A stretch of 64,000 nt of DNA. Origin: Parcubacteria group bacterium GW2011_GWC1_36_108. Its GTDB lineage: Bacteria; Patescibacteriota; Minisyncoccia; Moranbacterales; GWC2-37-73. The notes under the pieces were generated by a model. It did no database searches, had not been told where the DNA came from, and worked only from the letters and a program-made list of their open reading frames with translations. Position 1 is the stretch's first letter, and every line of letters starts with the position of its first letter. Where the stretch lies: the NCBI GenBank assembly GCA_000991245.1, contig LBRD01000002.1, positions 108,141 through 172,140 on the forward strand, written 5' to 3'. Positions 3,872 through 61,150 of this stretch are shown here, piece by piece. A program made the position numbers and the translations under genes.

Positions 3872-5620
3872 ATGCGAATTGAAAACAAACAGCTGAAAGA
3901 TTTTCTTTTAGATTCCAACTTATTAGAACCTGGAATTATAGAGGAAAATTTTAAAATCTCCTCGGAAACCAACCAAAAATTGGGGGATTTGTTGGTGGAA
4001 AAAAAGTTAATGAATGAAATTGAACTTCAGAAACTTTATTCTTATATCTTGGGCATTCCATTTGTTAATTTGGAAAAGGAGACTATCACAGCTGATATTT
4101 TGCAAATTATTCCTGAGCCTATTGCAAAAAAATATGGGATTATTGCTTTTGAAAAAAATGGTAATGACTTGAAGGTTGCAATGAAAAATCCTGAGGACTT
4201 GCAAACCATTGATTTTATTAGAAAAAAAACAGGGTTGAAAATTATTCCTTGTCTTACAAATGAAGAAAGTATTAAAGCAATTCTCAAGCAATATGAGAAA
4301 AGCTTGAAAGCTGAGTTTGGTGATATTATCAATAAAAATGCCGATGATGTCGCTGTTGGAAATGACGCGGAAAATTTGGAAAAAATCGCACAAGACTTGC
4401 CGATAATCAAAATTGTGGACACCTTGCTTAAACATGCTATTTTGCAATCCGCCAGTGATATTCATATTGAACCGGGGGAAAAAGAAGTTCGTGTTAGATA
4501 TCGTATTGACGGTGTTCTCCACGATGCAATGACACTTCCAAGACAAGTTTTGGAAGGTCTTGTTGCGCGTATTAAGGTTTTGTCTAATCTTAAATTGGAT
4601 GAACATCGTTTGCCGCAAGACGGACGTTTCAAGATTGAAAAAGAAGGATACAAAATTTCTTTTCGTGTAAGTATGTTACCAGTTTTTGAAGGGGAAAAAA
4701 TCGTAATGCGTTTGCTGGATGAAACATCCAAGGGACTCACTCTTGAAAAAATGGGGCTTACTGGTAATGCCTTGGAAGTCGTGCATAAGCACATCAAACG
4801 TCCCAATGGAATGGTGTTGGTAACGGGGCCAACCGGGTCTGGAAAAACCACGACACTGTATACGATTATGGATATTTTAAATACTACGGAGGTTAACATT
4901 AGTACGGTTGAAGATCCAGTGGAATATCGTATGACAAGAGTTAATCAAACTCAAACCAACGCTAAAATCGGAATGACATTTGCAGCGGCACTCCGCAGTC
5001 TCTTGCGTCAAGATCCGGACATTATAATGGTGGGAGAAATTCGCGATGGCGAAACGATGCAAATTGCAGTGGAAGCGGCGATGACAGGACATCTTGTGCT
5101 TTCAACATTGCATACTAACAGTGCCGCAGGAACGCTACCTCGTCTTTTGGATATGGGTGCGGAAGCTTTTCTGGTCGCTTCAACGGTAAATGTTGTTATC
5201 GGTCAAAGGCTTGTGCGAAAATTATGCAATGAATGCAAGACCGCTTATACGCTCGATGAAAAGGAAGTGAAAACACTTGGTGCTAATTTTGATATGGCCG
5301 CTATTTTGGAGATGCTTAAAAAAACTCCTGATTTGGGAGAGGTTGTTACGGCAAAAAGCACTTGGAAAAATTTGAATTTTTATCACGCCAAGGGTTGCGA
5401 ACAATGCAACAGTGAAGGATATCATGGACGTTTGGGAATTTATGAAGTATTGGAAATGGATGAGACAATTGGAAAATTGATAACCTCCAATGCTTCATCT
5501 GATGATATAGAAAAAAAAGCCAGAGAAAATGGAATGCGCACGATGGGAGAGGATGGTTTTATAAAAGCAATCCAAGGAATTACTTCACTTGAGGAAGTGA
5601 TGAGAGTAACGAAGGAGTAG
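3872..5620 (+). CDS. pilB: Type IV pilus assembly ATPase PilB / GspE family
   Basis: 582 aa; GspII_E N-terminal domain; Walker A GPTGSGKTTT; tetracysteine CNEC...CEQC motif. Confidence 0.9.
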   Translation: MRIENKQLKDFLLDSNLLEPGIIEENFKISSETNQKLGDLLVEKKLMNEIELQKLYSYILGIPFVNLEKETITADILQIIPEPIAKKYGIIAFEKNGNDLKVAMKNPEDLQTIDFIRKKTGLKIIPCLTNEESIKAILKQYEKSLKAEFGDIINKNADDVAVGNDAENLEKIAQDLPIIKIVDTLLKHAILQSASDIHIEPGEKEVRVRYRIDGVLHDAMTLPRQVLEGLVARIKVLSNLKLDEHRLPQDGRFKIEKEGYKISFRVSMLPVFEGEKIVMRLLDETSKGLTLEKMGLTGNALEVVHKHIKRPNGMVLVTGPTGSGKTTTLYTIMDILNTTEVNISTVEDPVEYRMTRVNQTQTNAKIGMTFAAALRSLLRQDPDIIMVGEIRDGETMQIAVEAAMTGHLVLSTLHTNSAAGTLPRLLDMGAEAFLVASTVNVVIGQRLVRKLCNECKTAYTLDEKEVKTLGANFDMAAILEMLKKTPDLGEVVTAKSTWKNLNFYHAKGCEQCNSEGYHGRLGIYEVLEMDETIGKLITSNASSDDIEKKARENGMRTMGEDGFIKAIQGITSLEEVMRVTKE

Positions 5621-5700
5621 GAACTAGGAATTAGCTTGTAGGAATTAGGCCTTGTTTATTATTTTACTAATTCCTAAATCCTAATTCCTAATATACTAAA
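5621..5700. repeat. Palindromic GT-rich repeat element (AGGAATTAGG ... CCTAATTCCT inverted arms) between pilB and pilC
   Basis: gtaggaactaggaattagcttgtaggaattaggcc...actaattcctaaatcctaattcctaat; imperfect inverted repeat able to form a long hairpin. Confidence 0.6.
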
Positions 5701-16694: not shown

Positions 16695-19328
16695 TTACTT
16701 TAGTGAGGCTAGATGTTTTTTGAGTTCGGCTAGCTCAGCTTGTTTTTTGGCGAGCGTTTCTTTTTGCTGAGAAATTACCTGCTCGGGAGCTTTGGAAACA
16801 AATTCTTTATTACCAAGTCTTGTTGATGAACCAGTGATGAATTTTTCAAGATTAGCTATTTCTTTTTCAGCTTTTGTTCTTTCCAGCTCAACATCAATAA
16901 GGCCGACAAGCGGAATTTTTATGATGCATTCTCCCACAACTCTCTGAATGAAGCCGCCAATCAATATTTCGTTAAATTTTATAACAGAAACTCCTGCTGA
17001 TTTTTTTATGAAATCTGCGTTTTCCAAGATGACTTTTTCAGATGATGCAGAAGCTGTTTCCACCCAAAGCTCTATTTTTTTGGCGGATTCTATGTTTTTT
17101 TCTTTTCTAACATTACGTATTGTTTTGTTGAGCGATAGTACAAATGGAAAATATGAAGAGGTTTTTGCTTGCTTGCTTTCTTCATAAGCTGGCCACTTTG
17201 AAATCATTAACAATTCTTTTTCTCCTGCCAAAGTCCAAATATGTTCCGTCACGAATGGAATAAAAGGATGCCATAATTTGAGCAATTTATCCAAAACATA
17301 ACCAAGTACCTTGTCATTCTTCTCTATTTTTTGAGTTTCAATGTATCCATCTGCAAAAGAATTCCACGTGAAAGTTTTTAATAAATCAGCTGCAACAGAG
17401 ATTTGTTTGCTTTCAAATAATTGATTTGTTTTTCCAATTAATTCATTTAAGCTGTCAGTAATCCAGCGGTCTGCCTCTGAGTTTATATCTTCCTTCGAAA
17501 TCTCTTCAACCAGTTTGAAATTTTCTTGCGAGAGGCAGTAGCGCGAAATGTTCCAAAGTTTGTTGGCAAAATTTCGGAAGGTTTCAATTTTTTCTTCGTA
17601 TAGACGTGAGTTTTGACCAGGAGCAGAGTCCATAATCAAACTCATACGCAATGCATCGGCGCCAAATTTTTCAATAACAGTAAGTGGATCGATTCCATTT
17701 CCTCTGGATTTGGAAAATTTGTGACCATCTTTGTCAAGCACCAGCCCAGTGAAAAATAAATTTTTAAAGGGTATTTTTCCTGTCGTGTATAGACTCATCA
17801 TTATCATTCGCGATGACCAAAAAAACAAAAGGTCGCGACCCATTACCATTGTGTTTGTCGGATAAAACATTTCAAAATCTTTTTCTTTTGATTTTAGTGT
17901 GGTATATGCCCATTGCGAAGAGGTGAACCATGTGTCGAAAGTGTTTTCATCTTGAACCACCGCTCCGCCACAATGTGGACAGCTGTCAATTTTTTCAATG
18001 GAAATTATTGGTTCACTGCATTTTGGTTGTGAGTTGTGAGTTGTAAGTTGTGAGTTAGTGCAATACCAAACAGGGAATTGTGGACCCCACCAAATTTGGC
18101 GAGAAATGCACCAGTCGCGCATATTATCAAACCAGTCGATGAGAATTTTTTGAAAATTATTTGGAAAAATTTCAATTTCATTTTTTTTGATAGCTTCAAT
18201 TGCTTTCTTTTTCAGGGAAAAGTTTTTAGCATCAACATTGATAAACCATTGGTTTGAAGTCAAAGGTTCAATAATTGTTTTGCAACGTTCGCAAATTGAA
18301 ACGCTGTGTGTCATCTCTTCAATTTTTTCCAGTAAGTTTAATTTTTCCAAATCTTTGATGATCTCTTCTCTTGCTTCGTGCACCGTAAGACCTGCATATT
18401 TTCCGCCAAGTTCAGTGATTAAAGCTTTTTCATCAATGATTTGGATTTCCTCTAACTTGTGATCTTTGCCAATCTCCCAGTCGAGAGGATCGTGAGATGG
18501 TGTGATTTTTACAGCTCCAGTTCCAAATGACAAATCAATTCGTTTATCTGCAATAATTGGAATGATCGTATTTTGAAGTGGTAGAATAATATTTTTCCCA
18601 ACTAATTTTGAATAGCGTTTGTCTTTAGGATTAACCGCTACAGCAGTGTCACCAAGCATTGTTTCGGGACGCGTTGTTGCAACCGTAATAAAATCGGTTG
18701 AATTCTCAATCGGATATTTGATAAAATATAGTTTTCCAGGAGTTTCTTTGTGCAAAACTTCCACATCGGAAAGTGCGGTTCCACAGCGCGGGCACCAATT
18801 TATTATTCTTTTGCCTTTATAAATCAAGCCATCTTCGTGCATTTTCACAAAAGTTTCAAGTGCGGTTTTGAGCACATCTGGATCAAGAGTAAATTTTTCT
18901 CGTGACCAATCAGCAGAGATTCCAATTTTCTTTTCTTGGCTGCGCATATAATCTGCACGATCAATACAAAAGGCATAAGTTTTTTTGTAAAAATCTTCGC
19001 GTCCAATTTCTTGGCGAGAAAGTCCTTTTTCAGCTTGCAATTTTTTTTCAAAAACAACCTGCGTCTGAATTCCAGCATGATCTTTCCCAGGGAGAAGTAA
19101 GGTTTTTTTGCCATTCATACGAGCCCAGCGACCAAAAATATCCATCACAGTGTATCCACTGGCATGCCCAATGTGCAGTTCGCCATTAGCATTTGGCGGC
19201 GGAAGAATATTGCAATATGTTTCTTTTGAATCTATATTGTCAGGATTAAAATATCCGCTTTTCTCCCAGCGAGCATAAATTTCATTCTCAATTTTTTGTG
19301 GCTCGTATATTTTTGGAAGTTCTTTCAT
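16695..19328 (-). CDS. valS: Valyl-tRNA synthetase, carrying an in-frame heptamer-repeat insertion
   Basis: PPPNANGELHIGHA (HIGH), GKDHAGIQTQ, KFSKS (KMSKS), C-terminal coiled coil; 877 aa. Confidence 0.85.
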   Translation of the reverse strand: MKELPKIYEPQKIENEIYARWEKSGYFNPDNIDSKETYCNILPPPNANGELHIGHASGYTVMDIFGRWARMNGKKTLLLPGKDHAGIQTQVVFEKKLQAEKGLSRQEIGREDFYKKTYAFCIDRADYMRSQEKKIGISADWSREKFTLDPDVLKTALETFVKMHEDGLIYKGKRIINWCPRCGTALSDVEVLHKETPGKLYFIKYPIENSTDFITVATTRPETMLGDTAVAVNPKDKRYSKLVGKNIILPLQNTIIPIIADKRIDLSFGTGAVKITPSHDPLDWEIGKDHKLEEIQIIDEKALITELGGKYAGLTVHEAREEIIKDLEKLNLLEKIEEMTHSVSICERCKTIIEPLTSNQWFINVDAKNFSLKKKAIEAIKKNEIEIFPNNFQKILIDWFDNMRDWCISRQIWWGPQFPVWYCTNSQLTTHNSQPKCSEPIISIEKIDSCPHCGGAVVQDENTFDTWFTSSQWAYTTLKSKEKDFEMFYPTNTMVMGRDLLFFWSSRMIMMSLYTTGKIPFKNLFFTGLVLDKDGHKFSKSRGNGIDPLTVIEKFGADALRMSLIMDSAPGQNSRLYEEKIETFRNFANKLWNISRYCLSQENFKLVEEISKEDINSEADRWITDSLNELIGKTNQLFESKQISVAADLLKTFTWNSFADGYIETQKIEKNDKVLGYVLDKLLKLWHPFIPFVTEHIWTLAGEKELLMISKWPAYEESKQAKTSSYFPFVLSLNKTIRNVRKEKNIESAKKIELWVETASASSEKVILENADFIKKSAGVSVIKFNEILIGGFIQRVVGECIIKIPLVGLIDVELERTKAEKEIANLEKFITGSSTRLGNKEFVSKAPEQVISQQKETLAKKQAELAELKKHLASLK
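18025..18060. repeat. Heptamer tandem repeat (GTTGTGA)n inside the valS coding sequence, in frame
   Basis: ggttgtgagttgtgagttgtaagttgtgagttagtg; translated on the minus strand as NSQLTTHNSQP. Confidence 0.6.
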
Positions 19329-19437: not shown

Positions 19438-19761
19438 TTAGGGTTGCGTTAACTCCTCAACTATCGCGTCCCTTAGTTCCTGCGAAAGTGAGGACTTTTG
19501 AATTTGCAACACAAATAATTTGATGTCTTTTCCAAGAGTCTCCGTTATAAATGTTGACAGGAGAATTTGAGGTTGCAACTCTTTGCTGTCGGAAAATATT
19601 TCTCCGAGCTGTTGAATGTAATGACCTGTAGCATTCATTGTTACATCTTCCTTGAATATGTCAGCACATTCTTTGATGGATCTAATTAGTGAGGGATCTC
19701 CGTTAGTAGCTACATAGACTTGATAAAGCATTCTTGCAATCGTGCTCATTTTAGGTCTCAT
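19438..19761 (-). CDS. Hypothetical protein
   Basis: 107-aa ORF, no motif recognised. Confidence 0.4.
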   Translation of the reverse strand: MRPKMSTIARMLYQVYVATNGDPSLIRSIKECADIFKEDVTMNATGHYIQQLGEIFSDSKELQPQILLSTFITETLGKDIKLFVLQIQKSSLSQELRDAIVEELTQP

Positions 19762-19821: not shown

Positions 19822-21045
19822 CTATTTCATTTTCAAGTTGGCATTTGGCTGAATTGTTTTCCAACCATCAAGTGCTTTTTTCTTTTGTGCTTCTGTCATT
19901 TTTTCCCAGCGAAAAGCTGCTGCAGCTGCAATCATAGCGGCGTTGTCGCCAGTCAGGTTTATAGGTGGTAGGTGGTAGGTTGTAGTTGGTAGGGATTTAG
20001 AAATAGCTTTGCCGAGTTGCTCGCGAAGTTCAGTATTAGCACTTACGCCACCTGCCAATAAAATTGTTTTTGGCTTGTAAATCTCGGCAGCCTTAATAGT
20101 TTTTGAAACAAGTACATCAATACAAGCCTGCTGAAATTCATGACAGATTTCAGGAATCAGTAACTCGTAACTCGTAACTGGTAACTTTTCTTGTAATTTT
20201 TTTGTTTCATATAACACAGCAGTCTTGAGTCCAGAGAAAGAAAAATTAAAATTCTTCTTATGCAGCATCGGGCGAGGGAAAATCAGCTTTTTAGGCATTA
20301 GCTTCTTAGCTTCATCGAATTCATAATTTTGTTTGGAAGTTGAGTTATTGGATTTTGTTTGGAAATTGGAAATTGGAAATTGGAAATTCGCAGCTTGCTG
20401 CGCAACCTTCGGTCCTCCCGGATAGCCGATGCCGAGAATGCGTGCAACTTTGTCAAAAGCTTCACCAACTGCATCATCCACGGTTTGTCCGATTATTTCA
20501 TATTGCAAATGATCCTTCATCAAAACGAGCTGAGTATGACCACCGCTGACAACAAGCGCCAAAATTGGAAATTCAATGTAGGTTCTAGGAATTAGGTTGT
20601 AGGAATTAGGTTTTTGTTTTTTATTTGCTAAATCCTCATTCCTAACTCCTAATTCCTGAGTTTCGATAAAGTTGGCATATATGTGTCCTTCGATGTGGTG
20701 AATCCCAATCAGGGGCTTTTCCCAGAGATAGGAAAGGGTTTTGGCATAGTTAACCCCTACTAGAAGCGCAGGAATAAGCCCAGGACCGCTTGTGACACTG
20801 ATTGCATCCAACTGGCTTGGCGTTATTTGCGCTTCTTCCAGGGCCATTTTTAGAAGCTTGGGAAAGTTTTTTAAGTGTTCTCTGGCAGCAAGATTTGGCA
20901 CAACACCGCCCCATTTGGCGTGTAACTTTACTTGAGATGAAACTTGATTTGTAAGAATCTCAAGCCCCTTTTTTGAACTACGCAAAATAGCGATAGCTGT
21001 TTCATCGCAGGATGTTTCTATAGAAAGTATTAGGGTATTTGACAT
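19822..21045 (-). CDS. tsaD: tRNA N6-adenosine threonylcarbamoyltransferase TsaD (Kae1/YgjD), with five in-frame repeat-derived insertions
   Basis: LILSIETSCDETAIAI, HIEGH, VVSGGHTQL, LAGGVSAN; start taken at MSNTL (21045). About 407 aa versus about 340 typical. Confidence 0.85.
   Translation of the reverse strand: MSNTLILSIETSCDETAIAILRSSKKGLEILTNQVSSQVKLHAKWGGVVPNLAAREHLKNFPKLLKMALEEAQITPSQLDAISVTSGPGLIPALLVGVNYAKTLSYLWEKPLIGIHHIEGHIYANFIETQELGVRNEDLANKKQKPNSYNLIPRTYIEFPILALVVSGGHTQLVLMKDHLQYEIIGQTVDDAVGEAFDKVARILGIGYPGGPKVAQQAANFQFPISNFQTKSNNSTSKQNYEFDEAKKLMPKKLIFPRPMLHKKNFNFSFSGLKTAVLYETKKLQEKLPVTSYELLIPEICHEFQQACIDVLVSKTIKAAEIYKPKTILLAGGVSANTELREQLGKAISKSLPTTTYHLPPINLTGDNAAMIAAAAAFRWEKMTEAQKKKALDGWKTIQPNANLKMK
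19964..19994. repeat. Heptamer tandem repeat (GGTGGTA)n inside tsaD, in frame
   Basis: ggtggtaggtggtaggttgtagttggtaggg; encodes LPTTTYHLPP. Confidence 0.6.
20158..20185. repeat. Heptamer tandem repeat (GTAACTC)n inside tsaD, in frame
   Basis: cagtaactcgtaactcgtaactggtaac; encodes LPVTSYELL. Confidence 0.6.
20292..20384. repeat. Composite repeat insertion inside tsaD (TTAGGCATTAGCTTCTTAG unit plus (GGAAATT)n)
   Basis: ttaggcattagcttcttag (cf. 52698 and 53564) ... ggaaattggaaattggaaatt; translated as ANFQFPISNFQTKSNNSTSKQNYEFDEAKKLMPKKLIF. Confidence 0.6.
20581..20659. repeat. Full palindromic TAGGAATTAGG-family element inserted in frame inside tsaD
   Basis: ggttctaggaattaggttgtaggaattagg...cattcctaactcctaattcctgag; translated as ELGVRNEDLANKKQKPNSYNLIP. 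Confidence 0.65.
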
Positions 21046-21150
21046 AAATATGATATTATTGTAGTATTCAACTTCCAATAAATGGCCTTGGGACACAATA
21101 ATTTTCAGACGTTTCGCGTAGTAGTAATAATCGTTAAGCGATTTTACCAT

Positions 21151-32716: not shown

Positions 32717-32826
32717 CTTTCCTGTGTAGTAAGATGTGTGATAATTTAAAAAATTTTTAAAAGTATTGCGTTTCGGGTATTTTGTATTTATACATGATAC
32801 ATGCTACATGATACATGCTACATGCC

Positions 32827-60500: not shown

Positions 60501-61116
60501 AAAAATTATTGACGTGATAAGTGAGAGCAAAAAAACAGTTACTGTTAAGATTGAAACGACTGAAGGCGAAGTGGTTGAATACCAAGTTCCAGCTGAATCA
60601 ACACTGGTTGTTTCCAAGGGACAACTCATTGGCAAAGGAACACAATTTAATGAAGGTCACATTGATCTTAAAAAATTGTTTGAAACAATGGGGCAGGAAG
60701 CAATTCAACGCTATGTTATTCAAGAAATTCAGGAAATTTATGCTGCGCAAGGTGAAGCGATTAGTGATAAGCACGTTGAAGTTATCATTCGTCAAATGCT
60801 TTCTCGTGTGAAAGTTATCAGCGCGGGAGACACCGATCTTTTGCCAGGGGACATCGTTGAAAAAGATCAATTTGAAGAATCCAATAATGAAGCGATTGCT
60901 GCCAAGGAAGAAATTGCTGTTGGCGAACAACTTATTATGGGAATCACAAAAGTTGCTCTTTCAACCGAATCATTCCTTTCAGCTGCATCCTTTCAAGAAA
61001 CTGCTCGCGTTTTGATTAACGCTGCAGTAACTGGAAAAGATGATCGTTTGCGAGGACTTAAGGAAAATGTTATTATCGGACGCTTGATTCCTGCAGGAAC
61101 AGGATACCGCAAATAG
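57538..61116 (+). CDS. rpoC: DNA-directed RNA polymerase subunit beta'
   Basis: 1192 aa; zinc finger [19 protein letters not shown]; [14 protein letters not shown] catalytic motif. Confidence 0.95.
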
Positions 61117-61150
61117 GTATTAGGTTCTAGGGATTAGGTTTTAGGATATA
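61111..61150. repeat. GT-rich repeat element (TAGG(A/G)TT family) after the rpoC stop
   Basis: taggtattaggttctagggattaggttttaggatatacaatacaaatc; shares the ...taggaaatacaaa tail with 2173-2215 and 15262-15340. Confidence 0.55.

Follow-up and report, generated by a model that had tools for sequence, protein, structure and literature searches.

How a tandem array of seven-nucleotide units can lie in frame inside an essential enzyme, and whether it acts there as a switch, is the question raised by the valine--tRNA ligase gene (valS) of Parcubacteria group bacterium GW2011_GWC1_36_108. The gene was studied in a stretch of 64,000 nucleotides from contig LBRD01000002.1, hereafter called the window. 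A first-pass annotation, made from the letters alone, had pointed to a heptamer insertion in valS and to a potential phase-variation liability. Our reading, which we consider probable and hold with some reserve, is that the array is a translated heptanucleotide simple sequence repeat (SSR) tolerated in a permissive surface loop and located on a recombining cassette, where it is a passenger or a mild liability and not a switch.

The heptamer array in the zinc ribbon of ValRS

The valS gene (16695..19328, minus strand) was intact and encoded a valine--tRNA ligase (ValRS) of 877 aa, as identified from the open reading frame (ORF) list, translated motifs, Pfam, T. thermophilus ValRS 1gax, and homologues. 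The Pfam matches were tRNA-synt_1 (3e-115), Anticodon_1, and Val_tRNA-synt_C, and 1gax matched the protein at 2.9e-175 with residues 3-869 covered. The motifs HIGH and KMSKS were present as ELHIGHA and KFSKS, respectively. The closest homologues, with 90-94% identity, were from Candidatus Moranbacteria (Parcubacteria, candidate phyla radiation, CPR), and the G+C content of the window was about 37%.

The sequence ggttgtgagttgtgagttgtaagttgtgagtt was located at 18025-18056. Tandem Repeats Finder reported here an array of 4.4 units (18026..18056, minus strand; period 7, 91% matches, score 55) with the unit GTTGTGA on the plus strand. On the coding strand the unit was AACTCAC, and the array read AACTCAC AACTTAC AACTCAC AACTCAC AAC. 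The tract that contained it, TGC ACT AAC TCA CAA CTT ACA ACT CAC AAC TCA CAA CCA AAA TGC, was translated as C-TNSQLTTHNSQPK-C. Together with the intact ORF, these results confirmed the in-frame heptamer-repeat insertion and its translation as NSQLTTHNSQP, both of which had been claimed in the first-pass annotation. In a codon-by-codon comparison with the canonical CxxC allele of L005/L007 and about 70 other Moranbacteria ValRS, the insertion comprised 33 nt (18027..18059, minus strand), that is, four units plus 5 nt, and encoded TNSQLTTHNSQ at codons 424-434. The predicted tryptic peptide covering the insert would end ...WYCTNSQLTTHNSQPK. An assembly artefact or a pseudogene was ruled out, as the array recurred in independent assemblies from NCBI, ENA, JGI, and Logan, with no damage to the ORF or to its catalytic motifs. 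For annotation, low-complexity inserts of this kind in CPR housekeeping genes are real features, neither assembly errors nor marks of pseudogenes.

The insert was placed in the first knuckle of the second zinc ribbon. The codon of Cys423, the first cysteine of the split knuckle, was at 18060..18062 (minus strand) and aligned with Cys417 of 1gax. The codon of Cys437 (18018..18020, minus strand) was assigned to the second cysteine from the sequence, motif order, and family alignment, which put a spacing of 13 residues, in place of the usual 2, between it and the first. HMMER paired Cys437 with P426 of 1gax and not with Cys420, and its equivalence to the second CxxC cysteine is drawn from motif order and the family alignment. 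The second knuckle, CPHC (17970..17981, minus strand), contained Cys450 and Cys453, which aligned with Cys438 and Cys441 of 1gax. The layout was accordingly C423-x13-C437 ... C450-PH-C453, with 11 codons added inside the first CxxC. Like the zinc ribbon of class Ia aminoacyl-tRNA synthetases (aaRS; Cys417/420/438/441 in 1gax), that of the window ValRS had four cysteines (aligned or retained) and a canonical CPHC knuckle, whereas its first knuckle did not keep the CxxC spacing and read Cx13C. The three Cys-type alleles that contained an array, those of the window, L002, and L021, retained all four cysteines. We infer from this pattern that the insert loops out and that the putative zinc ribbon is preserved.

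An AlphaFold2 model of the window ValRS, built on a 95-sequence alignment, gave a mean predicted local distance difference test score (pLDDT) of 87.6. The only stretch with a pLDDT below 50 was residues 428-434 (LTTHNSQ), within the insert. The 11-residue polar insert is probably a disordered loop that bulges out from between the cysteine pair of the first knuckle. Among the 120 best homologues, about 70 read WY-C-xx-C-G.EKYIVSLEKPxx-C-PH-C at this place, a 34-aa CxxC...CPHC module. In another group of homologues, a Cys-less 24-aa loop, RGEEIYVGLEAPKGEGW, stood in place of the ribbon. This replacement of the whole ribbon, which departs further from the class Ia pattern, was seen in many Moranbacteria, and the many Cys-less versions of 24 aa show that the family can dispense with the zinc ribbon altogether.

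Alleles at the site and the cassette that carries them

The same codon position was compared in related loci. The array of the window, with four units, was found in a matching Cys module in L002, L003, L004, L006, L027, and L029, whose ValRS was 90% identical; the sources of this group were ENA and JGI assemblies and a 2011 Rifle metagenome-assembled genome, and L027 was the same JGI contig as L004. L001 (94% identical), L022, and L028 possessed the array AACTCAC AACT[A/G]AC AACTGAC AACTCAC with the peptide TNSQLTTDNSQ, and this array was placed in a Cys-less module, R...QEPEMYVGLTPPKGKGW. The sister lineage L005/L007 (ValRS 92% identical) had a plain CENC knuckle (WYCENCGQEKY...) and no insert. 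In L021 the array read AACGCGC AACGTGG AACGCAA AACGTGA AACATGA (AACGTGA x5), with the identical 39-nt span between the two Cys codons. A core motif in which only AACG is conserved was considered for L021 and rejected; counted as (AACGTGA)5, the array had 6/35 deviations, and their clustering was not significant by a rough estimate (p ~0.2).

In a distant clade (about 58% identity), the same codon position held GTCNAAA x12 in L024, AAGYCRA x5 in L026, and AAAGTCN x3 adjoining the palindrome CCGCCAGCTGGCGG in L025. L023 and its kin had a GC-rich palindromic insert (GCCAGCC TAGG GCTGGC) in frame at this position. Furthermore, the ValRS homologues P0057 and P0112 carried domain insertions of 140-180 aa in the same loop. 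All valS arrays detected (about 20 genes) fell at this single site. Since arrays, palindromes, and domains of such variety share one codon position, the comparison shows an insertion hot spot across Moranbacteria, in a structurally permissive and even dispensable module. Tolerance of the valS array is probably due to its frame, to its lack of stop codons, and to its placement in such a permissive surface loop. In no relative was the peptide segment present without repeat structure; the relatives had the same array, another 7-nt-periodic array, or no segment at all, so the segment stood up as a repeat insertion. The GC-rich palindromes of L023 and L025 occurred in AT-rich genomes, and P0112 carried a precomputed match to PF00300 (histidine phosphatase).

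These alleles also bear on the explanation that the inserted peptide is adaptive at the protein level, for example as a new contact surface, and is held by purifying selection on its amino acids. The peptide TNSQLTTDNSQ was identical in L001, L022, and L028, the few nucleotide differences between their arrays were synonymous (TCA/TCG and CTA/CTG), and the copy number was invariant, as described below. However, the cassettes of L001 and L022 were 92-94% identical, which is consistent with a recent transfer, and the synonymous changes therefore carry little weight. Moreover, the insert was the lowest-confidence, probably disordered segment of the model, the peptides of L021, L024, L025, and L026 were entirely different, and close relatives had no insert. 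An adaptive peptide is thus very unlikely in our estimation.

The array lay within a variable cassette of about residues 423-462 (17943..18062, minus strand), delimited by sliding nucleotide identity and flanked by the invariant WWGPQFPVWY and QDENTFDTWF. In codon-based alignments, the window and L001 had 97-99% nucleotide identity in both flanks against 57-68% across the module, while the window and L002 had 93% in the module against 66-78% in the adjacent flanks. The 60 nt upstream were identical in the window, L001, and L005, yet these three had three different modules. The alignments show a module of about 130 nt behaving as a cassette that lineages exchange by homologous recombination through the invariant flanks, with the array travelling along. 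L021 and L022 were single Logan contigs and might be chimeric assemblies; the comparison of the window, L001, L002, and L005 was independent of both. For aaRS biology, the case shows that the second zinc ribbon of ValRS is a recombining cassette of high plasticity, in which stretching of the CxxC knuckle to Cx13C is tolerated. The valS gene was strongly mosaic among Moranbacteria, with at least three types of zinc-ribbon module between flanks otherwise 97-99% identical.

Copy number, open frame, and nucleic-acid signals

The copy number of the valS array was stable. The alleles of the AACTCAC type had exactly four units, in frame, in the window, L001, L002/L003/L004/L006, L029, L022, and L028. 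A metagenome scan for copy-number variants returned three loci, each with four units. Neither a copy-number difference nor an out-of-frame allele was found in the assemblies with an AACTCAC-type unit, a comparison made at the level of assemblies. With four units in every such assembly recovered, there was no sign of phase variation. The first-pass annotation had held that the number of units must be a multiple of three to keep the frame. This was wrong as phrased; with 4.4 units in the array, the rule of three applies to gains and losses of units and not to their total. Its suggestion of a phase-variation liability also found no support when repeat numbers were compared across related assemblies, in which all arrays of the AACTCAC type had four imperfect units in frame.

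Any 7-nt SSR can slip in principle, and a slip of one unit in either direction would shift the valS frame. In addition, arrays of other units at the valS site had 3, 5, and 12 copies in the more distant clade. It is nevertheless extremely improbable that the array is a hypermutable tract for contingency or phase variation within an essential gene. The copy number was identical across the assemblies with the AACTCAC-type unit, including samples from different studies, and no out-of-frame allele was seen. The units were imperfect and numbered only about four (91% matches), ON/OFF repeat-number alleles such as those of contingency loci did not occur among the alleles recovered, and the gene encodes a housekeeping aaRS rather than a surface or restriction-modification protein.

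The tolerated-repeat reading can be put as a sequence of steps. Judging from the literature on this class of repeats, slipped-strand duplication would generate the arrays, with the same 7-nt preference as in bacterial long SSRs. Selection would then retain only in-frame, stop-free versions in tolerant loops, and a slip of one or two units in either direction would be lethal in valS and hence purged. If such slips are purged, the valS array is a tolerated passenger or liability and not a switch.

The units themselves were consistent with a tract kept open for translation. In L001, L022, and L028, unit copies beginning in frame had AAC TCA or AAC TCG, and the copies with ..TGA.. or ..TAA.. were out of frame. 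In L021, the sole copy in which the TGA of the majority unit would be in frame had CAA instead. Avoidance of stop codons is the pattern expected for a tract that is translated and selected to stay open, which argues against bypass or excision. Translational bypass, an intron, and an intein were ruled out, as the 33 nt were in frame, stop-free, unstructured, and too short for an intein or a group I/II intron. The RNA of the tract folded no better than shuffled sequences (z = +1.03), with the array region unpaired. An Rfam scan of the whole window gave only tRNAs and no match at the array, and no excess of promoters or terminators was found at the tract.

Several insertion-like features were considered and set aside. 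The valS array did not form a hairpin of the kind of miniature inverted-repeat transposable elements (MITE) or repetitive extragenic palindromic (REP) elements, as its region was unpaired in the fold. The repeat TGCACT/TGCAGT flanking the window array was judged a coincidental target-site duplication, since removal of one copy would leave only three cysteines. Similarly, AGAACC on both sides of the L001 array was judged coincidental, since removal of one copy (38 nt) would shift the frame.

Period-7 arrays in Moranbacteria and other bacteria

Arrays were scored with match +1 and mismatch -2, a score of at least 12, and A+T of at most 80%. The window contained 6 non-AT-rich period-7 arrays against 0-1 at each other period from 4 to 12, and 100 dinucleotide-preserving shuffles of the window gave a mean of 0.01 period-7 arrays. 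In 303 kb of related Moranbacteria loci, 37 period-7 arrays were found against at most 3 at any other period, and nearly all had 3.6-5.4 units. For (AACTCAC)3 with up to 3 mismatches, there were 3 overlapping matches in the window against 0.00 expected. The valS array thus showed two features of a heptanucleotide long SSR, namely head-to-tail 7-nt copies beyond chance and a period-7 excess over neighbouring periods. The shuffles and period counts indicated that it is real and part of a period-specific, lineage-wide phenomenon. Arrays of about 4-5 period-7 units were a lineage-wide feature of coding and non-coding DNA alike. The statement that heptamer arrays are not restricted to tsaD was therefore correct, as they occurred in valS, elsewhere in the window, and in relatives. 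The proposed kinship of the valS array with the tsaD and intergenic arrays was weak; only a short AACTC/GTTGTR core was shared, and AACTCAC tandems were absent elsewhere, both in the window and in 29 Moranbacteria loci. When the units were grouped by single-linkage clustering at one mismatch, almost all merged into one cluster.

The tsaD gene (19822-21150, minus strand) had about five in-frame arrays, at 19962-19993, 20160-20186, 20359-20388, 20579-20612, and 20628-20657. They occupied two hypervariable loops, and the orthologues ranged from 364 to 452 aa. Its (AATTTCC)4.3 array was letter-perfect in the window, L001, L008, and L010. L008, together with L023, had AATTTCC in loop 1, and the other three had it in loop 2.

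Several observations that simple local slippage does not predict weigh against a simple tolerated slippage product in valS. The arrays kept about 4-5 units whether coding or not. The tsaD (AATTTCC)4.3 array was letter-perfect across lineages whose ValRS was only 71-94% identical. The same unit occurred at different sites, as with AATTTCC in either tsaD loop and TAGGNNT at about six places of the window. Finally, valS cassettes of two unrelated kinds, one with the Cys zinc ribbon and the other with the Cys-less R...EMYVGLTPPKGKGW, had near-identical AACTCAC arrays. The length, the tsaD conservation, and the two cassettes fit simple slippage poorly, and two other explanations are kept alive by them.

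The first is that pre-formed array elements of about 30 nt were inserted, by a mobile or a dedicated templated process, at preferred targets of which the valS site is one. It would account for unrelated heptamer units and GC palindromes at an identical codon position in different lineages, for nearly the same array in two cassettes, for the recurrence of AATTTCC and TAGGNNT, and for the narrow length distribution around 4-5 units. However, neither in-frame target-site duplications nor terminal inverted repeats, transposases, or reverse transcriptases were found near the arrays, and the AACTCAC tandem was nowhere else in the Moranbacteria sequence examined. The whole-domain insertions at the same ValRS site point to structural permissiveness instead, and a long-established array could also acquire a different unit through concerted evolution. 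We therefore regard insertion of pre-formed elements as unlikely, though deserving some weight. In a more far-reaching reading, equally unlikely, Moranbacteria and perhaps other CPR would hold a dispersed class of elements of about 30 nt (about four units), which a dedicated factor would actively generate or keep in a 7-nt register. It would colonise 5' untranslated regions (5'UTRs), gene ends, and permissive loops such as those of ValRS and TsaD, and the ValRS zinc-knuckle codon would be a preferred target hit repeatedly by different units.

The second is a function at the level of nucleic acid. The array would be kept as a binding platform on valS mRNA or DNA for a factor with a 7-nt register, a role like that put forward for the TAACTGA repeats of 5'UTRs, and the peptide would be a by-product. 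In L008 (3657-3692), L012 (about 1420-1453), L015 (9963-9997), and L020 (9963-9995), a (TTACTGA)~5 array ended 3-5 nt before the valS ATG, which mirrors the TAACTGA repeats of Beggiatoaceae, Cyanobacteria, and Bacteroidetes. In L021 (1-30), (TGGTCAC)4 likewise ended 3-5 nt upstream of the start of valS. In sister alleles, the internal array read CAACTGA, the length of about four units was fixed even without a frame constraint, and the tsaD arrays were perfectly conserved across divergent lineages. In contrast, L005/L007, with a 92% identical ValRS, and most Moranbacteria had no array at this site, and the unit there was entirely different between lineages. The tract showed neither RNA structure nor any sign of a promoter, a terminator, or an Rfam family, and no candidate binding factor was identified. 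A nucleic-acid function consequently seems to us distinctly unlikely. In L012 and L020, an imperfectly complementary GTCATCA array preceded the TTACTGA array upstream of valS.

Many of the other arrays of the window were at gene ends and starts. A TAGGNNT array at 2175-2210 directly followed the ychF stop codon and preceded a GC hairpin terminator, and another at 61114-61145 started at the rpoC stop codon; at both gene ends, the orientation of TAGGNNT places TAG in all three frames. An inverted pair at 5620-5700, intergenic between pilB (T2SSE) and pilC (T2SSF), ended 3 nt before the pilC ATG. This pair and 20579-20657, which is in frame in tsaD, had the same architecture, with (TAGGAAT)n followed by (ATTCCTA)n after a loop of about 15 nt, and each could form a hairpin of about 80 nt. 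It is a MITE/REP-like hairpin architecture, unlike the valS array. The array (TACATGM)5 at 32791-32825 ended 1 nt before an ATG of a Fe/Mn superoxide dismutase gene, and since each unit contains ATG, the annotated start of this gene is ambiguous. Between tsaD and valS, an ORF of 107 aa (19438-19761, minus strand) had no Pfam match; L005 had a called gene of the same length in this gap, and no gene was called there in L001 and L002. Among IMG/VR viral contigs (L035-L114 among them), (YAACTGA)4 was found in 111, some with several arrays, and (AACTCAC)3 in only 5.

Heptanucleotides have been described as outnumbering the other long SSRs in most bacterial genomes, and polymerase slippage has been proposed as their origin (Mrazek et al. 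2007, as cited in PMC4679880). A preference for four units and a placement beside start and stop codons have also been reported for heptamer repeats (PMC4692102). For the choice of a 7-nt unit and the preference for about four units in these commonest long simple repeats of bacteria, the present CPR genomes offer natural experiments, as arrays of one kind are found both in untranslated regions and within essential enzymes, where they are in frame. Since the arrays within enzymes must stay translatable, constraints at the protein level and at the nucleotide level become separable.

In comparison with the bacterial heptanucleotide long SSRs (Mrazek, Guo & Shah 2007; the short tandemly repeated repetitive sequences, STRR, of cyanobacteria; GGGAATC of Xanthomonas and Nostoc, PMC4692102), the arrays of Moranbacteria shared the head-to-tail 7-nt units, the period-7 excess at the genome level, the mode of about four units, the frequent position beside stop or start codons, and the occasional inverted pairs. 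The valS array differed in that it was CA-rich and unstructured and interrupted, in frame, the catalytic body of an enzyme that is essential. Translational bypass elements, such as T4 gene 60 and the mitochondrial 'byps', are likewise short insertions of tens of nucleotides that are dispersed and interrupt essential coding sequences. Unlike them, the valS array had a length that is a multiple of three, no stop codon, and neither a hairpin nor a pair of take-off and landing codons.

The TAACTGA repeats of Beggiatoaceae, Cyanobacteria, and Bacteroidetes (PMC4679880) have likewise 2-6 copies. They sit just upstream of start codons and occasionally in ORFs in the stop-free orientation (MacGregor 2015, PMC4679880), and the TTACTGA arrays of the relatives were similarly a few nucleotides upstream of the valS start. 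The sister alleles of the internal array read CAACTGA (= AACTGAC, 6/7), and the window unit AACTCAC matched at 5/7. The window array differed from these repeats in both unit (AACTCAC) and position (codons 424-434 and not just upstream of a start). Furthermore, the TAACTGA copies in ORFs (PMC4679880) were at protein termini or in hypothetical proteins, whereas the valS array was in mid-protein, inside a metal-binding motif, and its site recurred across lineages with other units. Full-text literature searches returned no paper tying heptamer repeats to CPR/Patescibacteria. The valS array belongs to the bacterial heptanucleotide SSRs, including the TAACTGA-like group, in a phylum where such repeats appear undescribed, and its location inside a zinc knuckle of an essential aaRS is an unusual place for a heptamer array.

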